A stretch of 64,000 nucleotides of DNA from Vicinamibacterales bacterium (GCA_965208535.1 CBDBOU010000003.1:282623-346622); one strand, 5' to 3'; shown: positions 2,192 to 41,420, numbered from the stretch's first letter. The notes: generated by a model from the sequence alone, not told the origin. Made by a program: numbers and translations.

Positions 2192-2941
2192 TCAGTAGCG
2201 TCGGGTGGCCGCGAAGCGAAGCCGGACGTAGTCGGCGACCCAGCCGCCGTCGGGCGCCCTCAGCACCGGATCGAGCCGCTCGCGCATCTCCGAGAGGACG
2301 GTCGGCCGCTCGCTGTCCAAGACACCCGCCAGGTAGGGCTGGGCGAAGATCCGCAGCCAGTCGGTCAGGTCGGACGGCAGCGGCGTCGGGCGCGGAAACA
2401 GCCGGATCGAGTCGACGTCGAAGCCGTTCGCGTCGAGCCGCTCGGTGTACGCCTCGGCGGTCGGGAAGTACCAGGGATTGAGCCGCTCCGCGTCGATGCC
2501 GCGCCGGGCCAGGACCTCACCGAGGGCGGCGCGGATCGATGCGACGCAGCCGTGGCCGCCCAGCTCCGCCACCAGTCGGCCGCCGGGGGCCAGCGCCCGA
2601 TGTACGGATCGCAGCGCCGCGTCCGGATCGCGGACCCAGTGCAGCACGGCGTTACTGAACACCGCGTCGAACTCGCCGCAGAAACCGAGAGCCGTCACGT
2701 CCGCAACGCGCGCGTCGAGCCCGCGCTCCCGCGCCGCTTGCACCTGTTCCGGACTGGCGTCGATGGCCACGACGCGGCAACCGGCCGCTACCAGCTTCTC
2801 GGTCAGCGCGCCGTCGCCGCAGCCGACGTCGAGCACCCGTTCGCCCGGCCGCGGGTCGAGCAGCTCGACCACGGGCGCGCCGAGATCGGACACGAACCGG
2901 GCGTGCGTGGCGTACTGTTCCGGGTTCCAGACCTGCATCAC
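2192..2941 (-). CDS. Class I SAM-dependent methyltransferase (trans-aconitate methyltransferase-like)
   Basis: 249 aa. The N-terminus WNPEQY..F resembles Tam, and VLDVGCGDG is the SAM-binding motif I. Confidence 0.8.
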   Translation of the reverse strand: MMQVWNPEQYATHARFVSDLGAPVVELLDPRPGERVLDVGCGDGALTEKLVAAGCRVVAIDASPEQVQAARERGLDARVADVTALGFCGEFDAVFSNAVLHWVRDPDAALRSVHRALAPGGRLVAELGGHGCVASIRAALGEVLARRGIDAERLNPWYFPTAEAYTERLDANGFDVDSIRLFPRPTPLPSDLTDWLRIFAQPYLAGVLDSERPTVLSEMRERLDPVLRAPDGGWVADYVRLRFAATRRY

Positions 2942-2954
2942 ATGCCTCGGCGAT

Positions 2955-3653
2955 TCATCCCTCGTCCGCGCCCGGCGGGGTGGCGTGGAGGCGGCCGGTG
3001 TAGATGGCCATGCCGACGACGGCGTCGATACCGGCCGCGTCGAGCCGGTCGATCTCCTCCTGCGCGGTGATTCCTCCGGCGGCGGTCAGGCGGCGCGAAG
3101 TCGCGTTGCGGACGGCCAGGATGGCCTCCATGTCGGTCCCCTGCATCAGCCCTTCCTTGTCGACGTGCGTGTAGAGGAACTCGCCACACCACGGTTCTAG
3201 CGCGCGCACCGCTTCGACCGCGGTCAGCGGCGTCGCTTCGCGCCAGCCCTTGACGACGACCCGGCCGCCCTTGCTGTCGACGGCGGCGATCACGCGCTCG
3301 GCGCCGATCGCCTCGGCGAGCGCCGCGGCGAAGTCCACGTCGGGCCGGCCCGCCCGGAACAGCGACGAGCCGACGATGACCGCCGTGGCGCCCTGGTCGA
3401 GCACGGTGCGGGCGCGCTCGATGGTGCGGATACCGCCACCGACCCGGCAGGACAGCCGCGGGGCGATGGACCGCACCAGTGCATCGTTGTCGCCGGAGCC
3501 CATGGCGGCATCGAGGTCGATCACCTGCACGCGCGGGAAGGCCTGGAACTTCCGCACCCAACCGTCGATGTCGTCCGAGGCGATGGCAGGCCGCTCCCCC
3601 TGAATGAGCTGCACCACCTGTCCGCCCTTCAGATCGATGGAAGGAATCAGCAC
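2955..3653 (-). CDS. hisA: ProFAR isomerase HisA
   Basis: C-terminal part of ORF 2955..4205. The N-terminus VLIPSIDLKGGQVVQL and the (beta/alpha)8 GGGIR motif are present. GTG start at 3653 overlaps the hisF stop (3647). Confidence 0.9.
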   Translation of the reverse strand: MLIPSIDLKGGQVVQLIQGERPAIASDDIDGWVRKFQAFPRVQVIDLDAAMGSGDNDALVRSIAPRLSCRVGGGIRTIERARTVLDQGATAVIVGSSLFRAGRPDVDFAAALAEAIGAERVIAAVDSKGGRVVVKGWREATPLTAVEAVRALEPWCGEFLYTHVDKEGLMQGTDMEAILAVRNATSRRLTAAGGITAQEEIDRLDAAGIDAVVGMAIYTGRLHATPPGADEG

Positions 3654-4435
3654 GAGTCGTCCCCGGTCCGCGCCCAGTGGCCCATGCGCACCGGGATCCC
3701 GCGGTGGTGGAGGTGCTGCTTCAGGTCGGCCACCGCGTGCTCGGCGTAGTGGAAGATCGACGCCGCGAGCGCCGCATCGGCCCTGCCGGCAGTGAACACG
3801 TCGACGAAGTGATCGAAGGTGCCCGCGCCGCCCGACGCGATGACCGGGATGGAGACCGCCTCGGAGACCGCCGCGGTCAGCTCGCAGTCGAACCCGCTCT
3901 TGGTCCCGTCGCGGTCGATGGACGTCAGCAGGATCTCGCCCGCGCCGCGGTCGGCCGCCTCCCGCGCCCACTCGACGGCGTCGCGCTCGGTCGCCTGCTG
4001 CCCGCTCCGCACGTAGATCCGGAACCCGCCGCCCTCCCGCTTGGCGTCGATCGCGACGATGACCGCCTGGCTGCCGTAGCGCCGCGCGAGAGCGGTCAGC
4101 AGCTCCGGGCGCGCGATGGCGGCGGTGTTCAGGCTCACCTTGTCGGCGCCCGCCTCGATGGCGGCGTCGGCGTGCGCCTCGTCCTTGATGCCGCCGCCGA
4201 CGCACAGCGGCAGGAAGATCTCCTGCGCCACGGCGTGAATCGTCCGCGCCATCGCCTTGCGCTTCTCGATGGTGGCGGTGACGTCCAGGATCACCACTTC
4301 GTCGATGCCCTCGCGGTTGTAGCGCCGGGAGAGCGCGGCCGGATCGCCGGCCGAGCGCAGCCCTTCGAAGTTGATGCCCTTGACGACCTGCCCGTCGCGG
4401 ACATCGAGGCAGGCGATGATGCGCTTGGACAGCAT
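3647..4435 (-). CDS. hisF: Imidazole glycerol phosphate synthase cyclase subunit HisF
   Basis: C-terminal 262 aa of ORF 3647..5140: MLSKRIIACLDVRDGQVVKG.. and CVGGGI. ATG at 4435 forms an ATGA overlap with the hisH stop. Confidence 0.93.
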   Translation of the reverse strand: MLSKRIIACLDVRDGQVVKGINFEGLRSAGDPAALSRRYNREGIDEVVILDVTATIEKRKAMARTIHAVAQEIFLPLCVGGGIKDEAHADAAIEAGADKVSLNTAAIARPELLTALARRYGSQAVIVAIDAKREGGGFRIYVRSGQQATERDAVEWAREAADRGAGEILLTSIDRDGTKSGFDCELTAAVSEAVSIPVIASGGAGTFDHFVDVFTAGRADAALAASIFHYAEHAVADLKQHLHHRGIPVRMGHWARTGDDSC

Positions 4436-5064
4436 CAGGCGGCCATCCGATCCAGGACGTTCTTGAACAGACGCAGCCCGACGTCGCCCGACTTCTCCGG
4501 ATGGAACTGCATGCCGACCAGCCGCTCGCGCTCGACGACGCTGGCGAACTCGATGCCGTAGGTGGTCGAGCCGATGCAGTCGGGTCCCACGGGGGCGGCG
4601 TACGAGTGCGTGAAGTAGACCTGGTCGCCTTCTTCCACGCCGTCGAGCACCCAGGAGTCGCGTGTCCGGTGCAGGCTGTTCCAGCCGACGTGCGGCACCT
4701 TGAACAGCGCGCCGTCGGCCGGGCCGGCCGGGTCGGGACGCTCGATGAGCCGGCAGCGCCCCGGTAGTGTGCCGAAACCGGGTACGCCGGGTGCCTCCTC
4801 GCTGCCTTCGAAGAGCCACTGCAGCCCGACGCAGATGCCGAGCAGCAAGCCGCCGCGCTCGAGCACGCCCGCGATGGCGCGCCGCCAATCGGCGTCGAGC
4901 GCGGCCGTTACCTCGAAGTTGCCGACGCCGGGGACGATCACGGCGCGCGCGCCGGCGAGGGCAGCCGGTCCCGCCGGCGTATCGAAGCGAGCGCCGAGGT
5001 GAGTCAGCGCCTTGCGCACCGAAGTGAGGTTGCCGGCGTCGTAGTCGATCAGCGCGATGCTCAC
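4435..5064 (-). CDS. hisH: Imidazole glycerol phosphate synthase glutamine amidotransferase subunit HisH
   Basis: 209 aa. GATase class I motifs are present: GICVGLQ (nucleophile Cys) and FHPEKS. Confidence 0.93.
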   Translation of the reverse strand: MSIALIDYDAGNLTSVRKALTHLGARFDTPAGPAALAGARAVIVPGVGNFEVTAALDADWRRAIAGVLERGGLLLGICVGLQWLFEGSEEAPGVPGFGTLPGRCRLIERPDPAGPADGALFKVPHVGWNSLHRTRDSWVLDGVEEGDQVYFTHSYAAPVGPDCIGSTTYGIEFASVVERERLVGMQFHPEKSGDVGLRLFKNVLDRMAA

Positions 5065-5066
5065 GG

Positions 5067-5681
5067 CTAGAGCAGCTCCTTCGTGCTCGGCAGCATTTCG
5101 CCGAGCTGCCGGTCGCGCGAGCAGGCCACCCGCAGCGCACGCGCGAACGCCTTGAACAGCGCCTCGATCTGGTGATGGCTCGACCGGCCGTAGAGCACCT
5201 TCACGTGCACGTTGGCGCGCGCGCCCTGGGCGAATCCGTCGAAGAAGTCGTGGACCAGCTCCGTCTGCAGATCGCCGACGCGCTCGACGGCCAGGTTCAG
5301 GTCTGTGACGGCATGCACGCGGCCGCTCAGGTCGACCGCGGCCACGCCGAGCGTTTCGTCCATCGGCATGACGAAGTACCCGGCCCGGTTGATGCCCCGC
5401 TTCGACCCGAGCGCCTGCGTCACCGCCTGCCCGAGCGCGATGCCGACGTCCTCGACCGTGTGGTGCTGGTCGACGTCGAGGTCGCCGGTCGCCCGGATCG
5501 TCAGATCGAACGCGCCGTGCCGGGCCAGCAGCTCCAGCATGTGGTCGAAGAAGCGGATGCCGGTGCTTACCGTGTAGCGCCCGCTGCCGTCGAGGGCAAT
5601 CCGCATCGCAATCTGCGTCTCGGTCGTCTCGCGGGTGATCGACGCCTGCCGCGGGTCGGCCGTCGTTTCGTTCGCGCTCAA
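5067..5681 (-). CDS. hisB: Imidazoleglycerol-phosphate dehydratase HisB
   Basis: C-terminal ~204 aa of ORF 5067..6512: [10 protein letters not shown].., DxHHxxE motifs and SSHHQIEA. The TTG start at 5681 overlaps the hisD TGA stop (TTGA). Confidence 0.88.
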
Positions 5682-6970
5682 CTGCCCGCTCCCTTGTCGC
5701 TGCGCCCCGGCGCCGAGCTCCTGGCCCGCGGCACGTGCAGCACCCGCCTCGCCACCGATCCGGCGTGCGCGCGGAGCCCCTCGGCGTTGGCCAGCGAGAT
5801 CACGCTCGGCGCCAGTCCCTGCAGGCCCCGCCGCGTCAGTCGTTGCACGCTGTTCACGCGCACGAAGTCGGCCGCGCTCAGTCCGCCACGGACGCGCGCC
5901 ACGCCATCGGTCGGCAGGACGTGGTTCGACCCGGTGGCATAGTCGCCTGCCGCCTGGGCCCCGTACGGACCGGCAAAGACGGTGCCGGCCCGGATCACCC
6001 GGCGGGCGACGTCGAGCGTGTCGGTGACCGCGTGCTCCGGCGCGATTGCGTTGGCCAGCTCCACCGCCTCGTCGAGGGTGGTCGTCACGACGGCCACGCC
6101 GTGCGTCGCGATCGACGGCGCGGCGTCCGGATGATCCTCGATCTGTGCCGCCACGGCGCGCGCCACGGCGCGGGCCAGGGGCCGTTCCGGGGTCAGCAGG
6201 ATCGCGCGCGCATCCGGATCGTGCTCGGCCTGGGCCACCAGGTCCGCCGCGATCCATTCGGGATTGCCGTCGCTGGAGACGACGACGATCTCGGTCGGTC
6301 CGGCGTAGAAGTCGATGGGGCAGTCGCGCGCCACCAGCGCCTTGGCCGCGGCGACGTAGGCGTTGCCCGGTCCGACGATCTTGTCGACGCGCGGGATGGT
6401 CGCCGTGCCGTAGGCGAACGCGGCGACGGCGTGCGCCCCGCCGATCCGGAAGAGGCGCGTCACCCTGGCTTCGACCGCCGCCGCGAGCACCGCCGGGGCC
6501 GGGTTCGGGCACGTCGCGACAACCTCCGGCACGCCCGCGGCACGTGCCGGTATGGCCGTCATCAGGAGCGACGACGGCAACGGGTGTCTGCCGCCCGGAA
6601 CGTAGCAGCCGACGCGGTCGAGCGGCGTCACCCGCTGCTCGATCACGACGCCCGGCGCGACCGTGGTCCGCCAGCCCTTCGGGACCTGCTTCACCGATAC
6701 CCGGCGAATGTTGCGCGCCGCGGTTCTGATCGCCGCCCGCACCACGGGCGGCGCCTCCTGCGCGCCGCGCCGGATCTCTTCCGCGTCGAGCTCGACCGGC
6801 CCCTGCAAGCGGTCGAGCGCCCGAGCGTACTTCAGGACCGCCCGGTCGCCCCGCCGCCGCACGTCGTCGACGATCTCCGCCACCCGGGCACTGACCTCCG
6901 CGTCGGGCACCCGCCCGCGCTCCACCAGGGCCCGCACCGCCCGCGCCTGCGACGACGCGATGATCCTCAT
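5678..6970 (-). CDS. hisD: Histidinol dehydrogenase HisD
   Basis: 430 aa portion of ORF 5678..7948, starting MRIIASS. Motifs include [17 protein letters not shown] and [17 protein letters not shown] overlap with the hisG stop. Confidence 0.93.
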
Positions 6971-7848
6971 AGGACGATCTTGTTCAACGGATACTCGACG
7001 ATCCCATGCCCGCCCGCCGCCCGCAGCCGTGGCATGAGCTCGCGGACGTCGCGTTCCTCGAGCACGGTGGACACCGCGACCCAGTCGGCGTCGCTCAACG
7101 GCGCCACCGTCGGGCGCTGCAACGCGGGCAGCAGCGCAAGGATCGCGTCCAGGTCGGTGCGCAGCACGTTCAGCATCAGGCCCACGCGGCCCTGCGCCTC
7201 CATCGCCGCCCGCAGCAGCAGCGCGATGTTCTCGATCTTCGTCCGCTTGGCGTCGTTCCCCAGGGCCCGCCGGTTGGCGATGAGCTGCGGGTTCGATTCG
7301 AGCACGGTGTCGATGATGCGCAGGTGGTTGGCGCGCAGCGTCGACCCGGTCTCGGTCGCTTCGACGATTGCGTCGGCCAGATCGGGCGGTTTCACCTCGG
7401 TCGCGCCCCACGAGAACTCGACGTTGACCTTGACGCCGAGCCGCGCGAAGTACCGCTCGGTCACCCGCACGAGCTCGGTCGAGATGCGCGCGCCTTCCAG
7501 ATCCCGGGGCGAACGGTACTTCGATTCCTCCGGCACGGCCAGGACCCAGCGCACCTTCCGGAAGCTCTGCTTGGAGTAGACCAGGTCGGTGACGCTCACG
7601 ACCTCCTCGCCGGTGGCCGCGTGGTGCTCCTCGATCCAGTCGATGCCGGTCAGCCCCGCGTCGACCGCCTCGTCGGCGACGTAGCGCGCCATCTCCTGCG
7701 CCCGAATCAGCGTGCACTCGATCCCGGGGTCGTCGATCGTCGGGTAGTAGGAGCGGGCGCCGACGTAGATGTTGAAGCCGGCGCGCGCGAACAACTGCAC
7801 CGTCGACTCCTGCAGCGAGCCCTTCGGGATGCCCAGGCGCAGCATCAT
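6967..7848 (-). CDS. hisG: ATP phosphoribosyltransferase, long form (HisG with C-terminal regulatory domain)
   Basis: 293 aa. [19 protein letters not shown] is present, and the length includes a regulatory domain. Confidence 0.92.
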
Positions 7849-8207
7849 CCCGCCTGTTCTGCGGCCTGCCGCTCCGCGTCCACGGCGCCGCCGTCGAGCG
7901 TCTTGAAGAAACAGGTGCGCTGGCCGGTGTGGCAGACGTTGCCGTCACCCTGCCGCTCGACCCGGAGGAGCACGGTGTCGTCGTCGCAGTCGATCAGCAG
8001 CCGCCGCACCTTCAGCCGGTTGCCCGACGTCTCGCCCTTCATCCAGAGCGTGTTACGGGTTCGGCTGAAAAAAGTGGCGAATCCCGACGAGCGGGTGCGC
8101 GCCAGCGCTTCCTCGTTCATGAAGCCGACCATCAGCACCTCGTCGCTGTCGTCGTCCTGTACCACGGCCGGGATCAACCCGTCGAGCTTCGAAAAGTCCA
8201 TCTCCAT
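7845..8207 (-). CDS. hisI: Phosphoribosyl-AMP cyclohydrolase HisI (monofunctional, no HisE domain)
   Basis: 120 aa starting at [18 protein letters not shown]. Motifs WMKGETSGN and CHTGxxxCF are present. ATGA overlap with the hisG start. Confidence 0.9.
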
Positions 8208-8298
8208 CCCTGTCGCACTCCCACGTCGCGCGGCTGCTTCCCGCGCCGCGCTCCAAGCGTCGCGCAGCCGGCTCGGCCCCCGGCCGCGCTCCAAACAC

Positions 8299-8330
8299 AA
8301 AAAAAGCCTCGCCGCGTGCTCGGCGAGGCC
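8299..8330 (-). terminator. Intrinsic terminator of the his attenuator
   Basis: Minus strand reads GCCTCGCCG-AGCACG-CGGCGAGGC followed by TTTTTTT. That is a 9 bp GC stem, a 6 nt loop and a U7 tract. It lies between the leader ORF and hisI. Confidence 0.75.
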
Positions 8331-8388
8331 TCGTGGTGCGTGGGCGTCTCCGGTCCGGTTACGTCACGCGCAAGTCCACAGGCCCGCC
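8322..8388 (-). promoter_or_regulatory. Candidate antiterminator pairing of the his attenuator
   Basis: GGCGGGCCTGTGG (8388..8376) is complementary to CCACGAGGCCTCGCC (8336..8322), giving 13 bp with 2 bulges. The second segment covers 8 of 9 nt of the terminator 5' arm. Confidence 0.55.
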
Positions 8389-8435
8389 CCGTTGCGGGTA
8401 TGACGATGATGCGCGTGATGGACGCTCCGCCGCAT
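8364..8435 (-). CDS. his operon leader peptide (hisL-like), MRRSVHHAHHRHTRNGAGLWTCA
   Basis: Hand translation of the minus strand gives ATG at 8435 and TGA at 8366..8364. Five His codons fall within 7 codons. The ORF is too short for the ORF track. Confidence 0.6.
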   Translation of the reverse strand: MRRSVHHAHHRHTRNGAGLWTCA

Positions 8436-8626
8436 GATCCGCTAACGGTATCCCAGCCGTGTGAACTCCGTCAACCGGCTCCATCTTTTTGCGGAGAGCT
8501 TAACGTCGCGGGAACATCTGTGAGACTATTCGAGCATGAGCTGGACGCATCCCGAGGTGCGGGAGGTGAGACGGCAGCCGCATCGTCCTTGCGCGGCGAT
8601 TTTCGACCGTCGGTGACCGGGGGCAG

Positions 8627-10195
8627 GTGATGACCAATAGCATCCGTTTCGATTCGTTGCTCCAGCGTCGGTTGGACCGCCGCGATCTGTTGACCGGCGG
8701 TCTGGCCCTGCTTGGCCTCGGCGCCGCCCGCCGCGCCTCGGGCCGCTCTCTCTTGCAACCGTCCGCGTTTCCGCTCGGCGTGGCCTCCGGCGATCCGACG
8801 CCGGACGGCGTCGTGTTGTGGACGCGCCTGGCCCTCGATCCGCTCAACGGTGGCGGGATGCCGCCGGAGGACGTGGAGGTGGTCTGGGAGGTGGCGCGGG
8901 ACGAGCGGATGGCCGACGTGGTGCAGCGCGGCACGACCCTCGCCGCCGCGGCGCTCGGGCACAGCGTCCACGTGGAGGTGGACGGGCTGGAGCCGGGGAG
9001 CTGGTACTGGTACCGATTCCGCAGCGGGGCCGACGAGAGCACGGTCGGACGGACCCGCACGCTGCCGGCTGCCGGTTCGCCCGTGGACAGGCTGCGGTTC
9101 GCCTTCGCCTCGTGCCAGCACTACGAGCAGGGCTACTACACGGCCTACCAGCACATGGCCGAGGATGATCTGGACCTCGTGTTCCACCTCGGCGACTACA
9201 TCTACGAGTACGAGGGACGTGAAGGGCGCGTCCGAATGCACACCGGCGACGAGATCGAGCTGCTGGACGACTACCGCAATCGGTACGCGCTCTACCGGAG
9301 CGACCCCGACCTGCAGGCGGCGCACGCGGCGTTCCCCTGGGTGGTGACGTGGGACGACCACGAGGTGGACAACAATTACGCGAACGACGTCTCCGAGGAA
9401 GAGGGTCTGCCCGCCGAGCTGCTCCTCCGGCGTCGCGCCGCGGCCTATCAGGCCTATTACGAGCACATGCCGCTGCGTCGTGCGTCGTTGCCGAACGGTC
9501 CCGACCTGCAGCTCTACCGGGCCTTCGCCTGGGGCGATCTCGCGTCGTTCCACGTGCTCGACACGCGCCAGTACCGCACCGATCAGCCCTGCGGCGACCG
9601 CCGGGGAGTCGTTTGCGACGGCATCTTCGACCCGGCGGCCACCCTGCTCGGCGAAACGCAGGAGCGCTGGCTGATGGACGGACTCGACCGGTCGGCGGCG
9701 CGCTGGAACGTCATCCCCCAGCAGATCATGATGGCGCGGGTCGACTTCACGCCCGGCGCCGGCGAGTCGTACGCGATGGACGTCTGGTCGGGATACGAGG
9801 CGGCACGCCGCCGCCTGATGGAGTTCCTTGCCACCCGACAGCCGGCGAACCCGGTCGTCCTGACCGGCGACATCCACAGCAACTGGGTCACCGACCTCAA
9901 GGTGGACTACGGCGACGCGGCTGCTCCCGTGGTCGGCACCGAGTTCGTGGGCACGTCCATCAGCTCCAGCGGCGACGGTGCCGATACGGGCGATACCACC
10001 GCCGCACTGCTCGCCGAGAACCCGTGGATACGCTTCTACAACGGCCAGCGCGGCTACGTGCGCTGCGAGCTGACGCCGGAGCGGTGCCGCGCCGACTACC
10101 AGGTGCTCGAGTACGTCACGCGGCCCGGCAGCCCCATCGCGACGCGTGCGTCGTTCGTCGTCGAGGACGGGAGGCCCGGCGCGCAGCGGCTGTGA
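8627..10195 (+). CDS. phoD: PhoD-family alkaline phosphatase/phosphodiesterase with Tat signal
   Basis: 522 aa. Twin-arginine signal RRDLLTGG, then [17 protein letters not shown] and the metallophosphatase core [20 protein letters not shown]. Confidence 0.9.
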
Positions 10196-40760: not shown

Positions 40761-41420
40761 ATGCTGTTCGCCAATCCAGCCAGTCTGCGGATGCCCACCG
40801 CGGCGGAGGCGCTGCCGGGCCGCGGCGAGCCGCTGCCGGTGCCGCCGGGGCATTTCGTGCACGGTCGTCCGATAGCCCCGCCGTTTCCGGAGGGCACGCG
40901 GAGCGCGGTTTTCGGCCTCGGCTGCTTCTGGGGCGCCGAGCGCACCTTCTGGAAGCTCGAGGGCGTCTATTCGACGGCCGTCGGTTACGCCGGGGGGTTC
41001 ACGGAGAATCCGACCTACGAAGAGGTCTGCAGCGGGGGGACGGGACACTCCGAGGTGGTGCTCGTCGTCCACGACCCGCGGGTCATCGACTTCGAGGGGC
41101 TCCTGAGGGTCTTCTGGGAGAGTCACGATCCGACGCAGGGCATGCGCCAGGGCAACGACGTGGGGACACAGTACCGCTCGGTGATCTTCGTCGACGACGA
41201 CGAGCGGTTGCGTGTGGCGGAGGCATCTCGGGATGCGTACCAGCCGGGTCTGACGGCGGCGGGCTACGGCGCGATCACCACCGAGATCCGTACGGCGCCT
41301 CCGTTCTACCACGCCGAGGAGTACCACCAGCAGTACCTGGCGAAGAACCCCGGCGGCTACTGCGGTCTCGGCGGCACCGGCGTTGCCTGTCCGCGGCCGG
41401 CTGAAGCCCAGCACGCCTGA
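40761..41420 (+). CDS. msrA: Peptide methionine (S)-sulfoxide reductase MsrA
   Basis: 219 aa. The active site GLGCFWGAE and the motifs GYAGG and HSEVV are present. Confidence 0.93.

Follow-up and report, generated by a model that had tools for sequence, protein, structure and literature searches.

The DNA analyzed here (the window) is a 64,000-nucleotide stretch of the genome of a Vicinamibacterales bacterium (GCA_965208535.1; CBDBOU010000003.1:282623-346622). Its minus strand carries a histidine biosynthesis operon with the gene order hisI-hisG-hisD-hisB-hisH-hisF, and the genes downstream of the leader described below are all involved in histidine biosynthesis (Table 1). The hisA, hisC, and hisE genes were not identified in positions 2938..7848 of this strand. 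Downstream of hisF come an ORF of 207 aa (2938..3561) that matches nothing in NCBIfam and then a gene for a class I methyltransferase. On the other side of hisI is a gene for a divergent PhoD phosphatase, which is encoded on the plus strand. The spacer between the PhoD gene and hisI contains a short ORF rich in His codons, a GC-rich hairpin followed by a T tract, and several complementary segments that link the two.

Table 1. Features of the hisI leader and the operon downstream (window coordinates)
Feature	Position	Strand	Description
-35-like hexamer TTGACG	8469..8474	-	Putative leader promoter, function suggested by conservation
-10-like hexamer TACCGT	8445..8450	-	Ends 9 nt before the leader ATG
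Leader ORF	8364..8435	-	23 codons plus stop; ATG 8435 to TGA 8366..8364; reads MRRSVHHAHHRHTRNGAGLWTCA*
Regulatory His codons CAU CAC GCG CAU CAU CGU CAU	8400..8420	-	Region 1; proposed ribosome stall site
Protector (anti-antiterminator, possible pause) hairpin	8364..8418	-	8418..8410 x 8372..8364 enclosing 8406..8394 x 8387..8376
Antiterminator 5' strand GGCGGGCCUGUGG	8376..8388	-	Region 2; within the last 8 leader codons
Antiterminator 3' strand CCACGAGGCCUCGCC	8322..8336	-	Region 3; overlaps the terminator 5' arm
Intrinsic terminator (predicted)	8299..8332	-	12-pair stem (9 G-C/A-U core pairs), 6-nt loop, T7
hisI (phosphoribosyl-AMP cyclohydrolase)	7845..8207	-	NCBIfam NF000768, E = 9.6e-42
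hisG	7848..6967	-	NCBIfam match
hisD	6970..5678	-	NCBIfam match
hisB	5699..5067	-	NCBIfam match
hisH	5064..4435	-	NCBIfam match
hisF	4438..3647	-	NCBIfam match

A preliminary description of this region, made from the sequence alone, had reported an unannotated, His-rich ORF of 23 codons on the minus strand; its coordinates and its translation (MRRSVHHAHHRHTRNGAGLWTCA) were both reproduced. Five of the seven codons at 8420..8400 specify His, in the pattern HHAHHRH. When all six frames of the 64-kb window were searched for at least five His in seven codons, this run was the sole instance, and no second His-run leader was found elsewhere in the window. Mini-ORFs with runs of other amino acids were rejected as off-frame reads inside genes, and a W-rich frame at 41332 was rejected because it lies inside long ORFs called on both strands. 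The element is indeed unannotated: it has no Rfam match at an E value of 10 or below, the ORF was not called by gene callers, and the spacer is left empty, with no gene call, in four public contigs that carry an identical hisI.

The hairpin between the leader ORF and hisI (GAGGCCUCGCCG-AGCACG-CGGCGAGGCUUU, 8332..8303) starts 31 nt past the leader stop. Its core pairs GCCUCGCCG with CGGCGAGGC and is followed by seven T residues (8305..8299), and the stem reaches 12 pairs when G-U pairs and the A-U pairs that extend into the T run are counted, its 3' end thus running into T7. The energy of this predicted terminator is -22.1 kcal/mol. Its stop point lies 95 nt from hisI (8302..8208), and the spacer after T7 occupies 8208..8298. 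Only one perfect stem of at least 9 bp followed by at least six T residues exists on either strand of the window, and it is the leader terminator. The leader as a whole (8445..8290, 156 nt) has a minimum free energy (MFE) with a z score of -3.3 relative to dinucleotide shuffles. In a scan with a simple terminator pattern, one site was found and 1.0 was expected in shuffled sequences, i.e., such sites are no rarer in the window than in the shuffles; the case for a terminator would therefore be carried by the strength of the hairpin and its conservation in relatives, not by the pattern scan. The strong terminator of the preliminary description, with a 9-bp GC stem and T7, proved accurate in its coordinates and is retained in 78 of 79 related loci, as detailed below.

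A HisI protein search with one genome per GTDB species provided 80 loci (L001 to L080), among at least 237 hisI loci detected, and 79 of the 80 were usable (i.e., upstream sequence was present). These relatives belong to the Vicinamibacterales (the clade of the window), the Bryobacterales, and other Terriglobia, with the best match being 90% identical. Alignment of their hisI upstream regions, which the preliminary description had put forward as a check, revealed a His-run mini-ORF upstream of hisI in 79 of 79 usable loci, spanning two classes of Acidobacteriota, as well as a terminator with compensatory changes (90.6% of cells paired; six pairs changed on both sides). The runs contain a median of six His (range, 4 to 8). 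A GC-rich hairpin accompanied by a T-rich tract is present in 78 of the 79 loci. Outside the His run, the leader peptides vary freely in length, N terminus, and C terminus. The upstream neighbor also varies, with PhoD being common to just 4 of the 80 loci, and the element therefore appears to travel with hisI. The block from the promoter to the T tract is 87% identical to that of the closest relative (L001), versus 64% for the spacer after the terminator.

Three of these loci have peculiarities of their own. L009 has kept the His-run ORF and the hairpin and has no T tract (about 2880..2960), and L063 has a weakened His run, RRHPHPHR (about 2890..2965). Both may be decaying copies of the element; a covariance model still matches them, with E values of about 1e-4. 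Despite its title, "uncultured Bifidobacteriaceae bacterium," L025 (CAYNUO010000015.1) has a hisI of the Vicinamibacterales type (72% identity) and shares the leader, terminator, and promoter architecture. The other 79 loci carry acidobacterial labels, and L025 is probably a mis-binned or mislabeled MAG.

The 5' arm of the terminator has an alternative partner. The preliminary description had proposed an antiterminator in which the end of the leader ORF pairs with a segment overlapping this arm, and the pairing of 8388..8376 with 8336..8322 (CCAC.GAGGCC.UCGCC) exists at these positions, with a duplex energy of -22.5 kcal/mol that equals that of the terminator. It is the MFE structure of the nascent transcript before the 3' arm of the terminator is made. 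For 78 loci, we compared the best duplex between the segment after the His run and the terminator 5' arm with those obtained from dinucleotide shuffles. In 75 of the 78 loci, the native duplex has a lower energy than the shuffle mean (median z = -1.8; p <= 0.05 in 37), and its stability also exceeds that of a decoy with the arm reversed (Wilcoxon p = 4e-9), the significance of the Wilcoxon values being inflated by kinship among the loci. The 5' strand invariably lies within the final leader codons, at a median position of -19..-5 relative to the leader stop. In an alignment-free test in which arms were swapped among loci, the strand of each locus fitted its own arm better than the arms of other loci (mean residual, -2.1 kcal/mol; z = -7.2; 0 of 5,000 permutations).

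Alignments led to a similar picture once differences in register were accommodated. In fixed-register MAFFT columns, 61.5% of antiterminator cells are paired, versus 33 to 40% in slid controls, and covariation in the window's register of this alignment is not above that of shuffles (100/500). Because the register of the antiterminator differs between loci, the sequences were realigned with a covariance model. This realignment, which is fitted to the structure and takes in about 10 reverse-strand matches, resulted in 61.6% paired cells (<=46% in slid controls) and a covariation score of 0.131, versus 0.081 +/- 0.007 for shuffles (0/500), with 10 of the 13 pairs changing on both sides. The proposed antiterminator thus withstood the shuffle controls, the swap test, and the structure-aware alignment. 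A C-terminal peptide motif that recurs among the leaders ("GPAGL," "GAG," or "G(A/R)G") is best read as the coding shadow of the antiterminator strand. The reverse-strand matches of the covariance model are located at the terminators of L010, L028 to L033, L039, and L043, and they arise because A-rich and T-rich tracts flank the palindromic stem. The terminator of L010 (GAAAAGCCCCGCCGG...CCGGCGGGGCTTTTT) could support bidirectional termination.

Two further complementarities had been reported in the preliminary description, and each was only partly upheld. The first, between the His-codon run (8417..8410) and the segment across the leader stop (8372..8365), is present in the window with a duplex energy of -13.4 kcal/mol, and the hairpin that it closes is the MFE structure of the free RNA (z = -1.9 for the window segment). 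The two strands of this outer stem, CACGCGCA and UGCGCGUG, are consensus sequences in the Vicinamibacterales, where 69.6% of cells are paired across 54 rows versus about 40% in slid controls, but they are a consensus in that clade alone. The MFE of the protector segment is below the shuffle mean in most Vicinamibacterales (median z for all loci, -0.97), and the hairpin is unsupported in the Bryobacterales (median z of about 0). The second, CCCGC (8398..8394) with GCGGG (8387..8383), pairs as described but is not clearly conserved and is not a general feature. Across the loci, direct pairing of the His codons with region 2 is not stronger than expected from shuffles (median z = -0.07; window, +1.5). 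Judging from these comparisons, the predicted protector hairpin appears to be specific to the Vicinamibacterales clade.

A simple promoter scan of the window returned nothing, because the -10 element is TACCGT; promoter-like elements were recovered by comparing relatives. The layout in the window is TTGACG-18-TACCGT, followed by 9 nt and the ATG. A TAnnnT hexamer ends 8 to 10 nt before the leader start in 63 of 75 loci (mode, 9 nt) and reads TATACT in the Bryobacterales. A TTGACA-like hexamer 17 to 19 nt upstream of the -10 element, with at least five of six matches, occurs in 37 of the 75, and a perfect TTGACA at 18 nt is common in the Vicinamibacterales. A Shine-Dalgarno (SD) tetramer precedes the leader in just 2 of the 75 loci, and the leader of the window has no SD sequence. 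Because the promoter-like elements end 9 nt before the ATG and no SD sequence is present, we infer a 5' untranslated region (UTR) of approximately 0 to 3 nt, which would make the sensory ORF leaderless or nearly leaderless. The four public contigs with an identical HisI (L081 to L084) all have the substitution C8448T, which changes TACCGT to TATCGT, nearer to the consensus; they otherwise show one or two differences from the window in 294 nt.

When the complete leader is folded at equilibrium, every ribosome mask yields the terminator. Because it always wins at equilibrium, the switch would have to be kinetic, as in classical attenuators. The equilibrium folds, being uninformative in this respect, were replaced by folds of the nascent transcript and by the energies of forced conformers, from which ddG was calculated as the energy of the antiterminated conformer minus that of the terminated conformer, each being forced. 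In the window, ddG is +14.3 kcal/mol with the ribosome absent; +2.9, +4.4, and +7.3 kcal/mol with a ribosome stalled with its A site on His3, His4, and His5, respectively; and, for a ribosome that has reached the stop codon, +18.8 kcal/mol. The medians for 78 loci are 11.3 (no ribosome), 6.0 (stalled), and about 11 to 12.7 kcal/mol (at the stop). Stalling lowers ddG below the value without a ribosome in 68 of the 78 loci, and in 60 of the 78 both ribosome states shift it in the direction expected of an attenuator. Thus, when folded with a ribosome at the His codons or at the stop, as the preliminary description had proposed, the three states behave in an attenuator-like manner in terms of forced-conformer energies. 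A ribosome at the stop codon masks a median of 73% of the antiterminator pairs in the relatives. It masks none in 11 of them, and therefore the protector or some other feature would be needed there. In the window, 7 of the 13 antiterminator pairs are still formally possible in this state.

The locus accordingly has the following features of a classical attenuator: (i) clustered His codons upstream of hisIGDBHF, so that the amino acid matches the pathway; (ii) a predicted intrinsic terminator hairpin between the leader ORF and hisI; (iii) an antiterminator helix as an alternative structure involving the terminator 5' arm; and (iv) a geometry in which a stalled ribosome would free the antiterminator strand and a ribosome at the stop would mask it. 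With the leader, the terminator, and their order conserved, and with the antiterminator tests and the energetics of the three states in agreement, the attenuator reading of the preliminary description is supported. Very probably, the element is a ribosome-mediated transcription attenuator that sets the expression of hisI-hisG-hisD-hisB-hisH-hisF according to the supply of charged tRNA-His.

From the observed sequence elements, their conservation, and the in silico energetics, we infer the following course of transcription start, leader translation, stalling, and termination or readthrough. Transcription would start a few nucleotides upstream of the leader ATG, and a ribosome would load onto the 23-codon leader at once. 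When His-tRNA is scarce, the ribosome would stall on the five His codons (8420..8400), breaking the protector hairpin and freeing GGCGGGCCUGUGG (8388..8376) to pair with 8336..8322 once that strand is made. The antiterminator would then hold the 5' arm of the terminator, and RNA polymerase would read through into hisI. When His-tRNA is plentiful, the ribosome would reach the UGA (8366..8364) and cover the antiterminator strand over its 3' half; formation of the 12-pair terminator with U7 would follow, and transcription would stop 95 nt before hisI. If the leader is untranslated, the protector hairpin would sequester the antiterminator strand, and termination would be favored in this case as well.

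The rival reading that retains most of this scheme is one in which the leader senses His by stalling, but the output is not, or not exclusively, intrinsic termination; it could be hisI translation (through access to the ribosome-binding site, as with the mycobacterial Cys short ORFs), Rho access, or mRNA stability, the hairpin being mainly structural. In many relatives, the T tract ends 3 to 20 nt before the estimated hisI start, so that the hairpin could affect initiation; the terminator always forms at equilibrium; and translation-level attenuation by leaderless short ORFs is known (10.1101/834739). We consider such an output unlikely, given that strong-terminator features (a GC stem of 9 to 12 pairs and U7) are kept in 78 of 79 loci, including the T tract, that the terminator of the window, at 95 nt from hisI, cannot occlude the ribosome-binding site, and that just 26 of 79 loci show an SD tetramer close to where hisI is estimated to start.

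Much less probable is that the mini-ORF encodes a functional His-rich micropeptide (e.g., a metal-binding one) with its own promoter and terminator, its adjacency to hisI being incidental. His-rich peptides can bind Ni or Zn, and the ORF does have conserved promoter-like elements and a terminator of its own. However, conservation at the peptide level is limited to the His run, and the C-terminal "GPAGL" or "G(A/R)G" motif falls on the RNA strand that can pair with the terminator arm. The ORF is, moreover, always located upstream of hisI, whichever gene is the upstream neighbor, and the alternative pairing to which the terminator is coupled begins within the ORF. The last and least credible reading, a plain terminator or insulator in the PhoD-hisI spacer together with a chance His-rich frame, draws on the many spurious ORFs and hairpins of GC-rich genomes and on the simple terminator pattern being no rarer than in shuffles, but it appears effectively refuted already by the comparative data, since the window has no other His run in six frames of 64 kb and no other strong terminator, both elements are conserved in 78 to 79 loci of two classes, nothing upstream on the minus strand needs terminating because PhoD is divergent, and an essential biosynthetic operon would be silenced if a constitutive terminator stood directly between it and its conserved promoter.

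Among known systems, the element most closely resembles enterobacterial hisL, in which His-tRNA-dependent ribosome stalling controls the his operon (PMC9413887). Both have His codons clustered in a short leader ORF, and in both a terminator and an antiterminator draw on a common strand; an upstream protector or pause hairpin is predicted in the window and its clade as well. However, there is no detectable sequence or structure similarity to hisL (RF00514). The His_leader scan suggested in the preliminary description was carried out with RF00514, together with the T-box model RF00230, and neither matched the window at the gathering score, positions 8150..8650 at E <= 10, or 20 related loci. A mir-1538 match at E = 8 in the permissive Rfam scan was rejected as noise. 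E. coli hisL has seven consecutive His codons, whereas those of the present leader are interrupted (HHAHHRH). In addition, the first structural gene here is hisI rather than hisG, the leader is SD-less and starts 9 nt after the -10 element, and the host phylum is Acidobacteriota.

Outside Proteobacteria, predictions of His-leader attenuators are limited to some Firmicutes, namely, for the his operon of the Bacillus cereus group, Peptostreptococcaceae, and Erysipelotrichales and for hisS/hisZ in bacilli (PMC9413887 and PMC2965389). Like the present element, these are lineage specific, lack a match to RF00514, and were found by comparative genomics, as a His-rich leader accompanied by a terminator and an antiterminator (PMC9413887 and PMC2965389); unlike it, they are low in GC, contain three to five consecutive His codons, and belong to another phylum. 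We found no evidence of common ancestry between the Firmicutes His leaders and the element described here. In Actinobacteria, leaderless short ORFs include the mycobacterial polycysteine ORFs (10.1101/834739), and leader peptides of trp, leu, ilv, and aro are described in Corynebacterium (PMC3890552). These resemble our element in being unannotated sensors at or near the 5' end of the transcript (a position suggested here by promoter geometry) that respond to one amino acid through stalling. The mycobacterial Cys ORFs, however, unmask a downstream ribosome-binding site and thus act at the level of translation, not on an intrinsic terminator, and both the amino acid and the phylum differ. Histidine T-boxes (Corynebacterium glutamicum, Lactococcus, and many Firmicutes) likewise precede his genes and let tRNA-His charging decide whether a terminator or an antiterminator forms, but they sense uncharged tRNA directly, without translation, whereas the present element has a predicted translated ORF with His codons.

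The predicted attenuators of Acidobacteria are almost all unassigned (PMC2965389), and a search of Actinobacteria for His-leader attenuators is the subject of a conference paper as cited in PMC4833913. In the full-text literature, we found no description of a His-leader attenuator in Acidobacteria; an earlier prediction in older comparative surveys is possible. The sequence comparisons most likely point to a His attenuator of the classical type in a new lineage; it is conserved across the Acidobacteriota, unannotated, and outside Rfam. We advance more tentatively, at slightly less than an even chance, the broader proposal that the Acidobacteriota as a phylum share an ancestral His attenuator that evolved independently of proteobacterial hisL, with its ORF on a leaderless or near-leaderless transcript (5' UTR of <=3 nt). 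If so, ribosome loading at the nascent 5' end would start the attenuation clock, and the element would be the first leader-peptide transcription attenuator for Acidobacteriota, as far as the literature shows, as well as a candidate new Rfam family. It would also point indirectly to a tight coupling of transcription with translation and to initiation that does not depend on SD sequences in this phylum.

The mechanism itself is a textbook solution and leaves concepts unchanged. The Acidobacteriota, however, are among the most abundant soil bacteria, and their gene regulation is almost unstudied. The element represents a test case for transcription-translation coupling, intrinsic termination, and SD-less initiation in these bacteria, and it can seed a covariance model with which MAG annotation would no longer leave such leaders blank. 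It further bears on the frequency with which his operons outside Proteobacteria acquired or retained leader-peptide attenuation.

Two minor observations concern the sequence flanking and composing the element. An imperfect direct duplication with a period of about 38 nt (8245..8294, minus strand) lies in the terminator-hisI spacer; TTGGAGCGCGGC occurs at 8294..8283 and at 8256..8245, each copy being followed by a GC hairpin; the 12-mer is present nowhere else in the window, and Tandem Repeats Finder reported nothing in this spacer. Most relatives have a spacer of 3 to 80 nt, and a comparable length is found in L001 alone, at 64% identity. Finally, CAU accounts for 52% of the His-run codons, versus 38% in neighboring long ORFs (a greedily picked set, some of whose frames may be spurious), and its share is higher in the leader in 63 of 74 loci. 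This excess could reflect slower decoding or constraints from RNA pairing.
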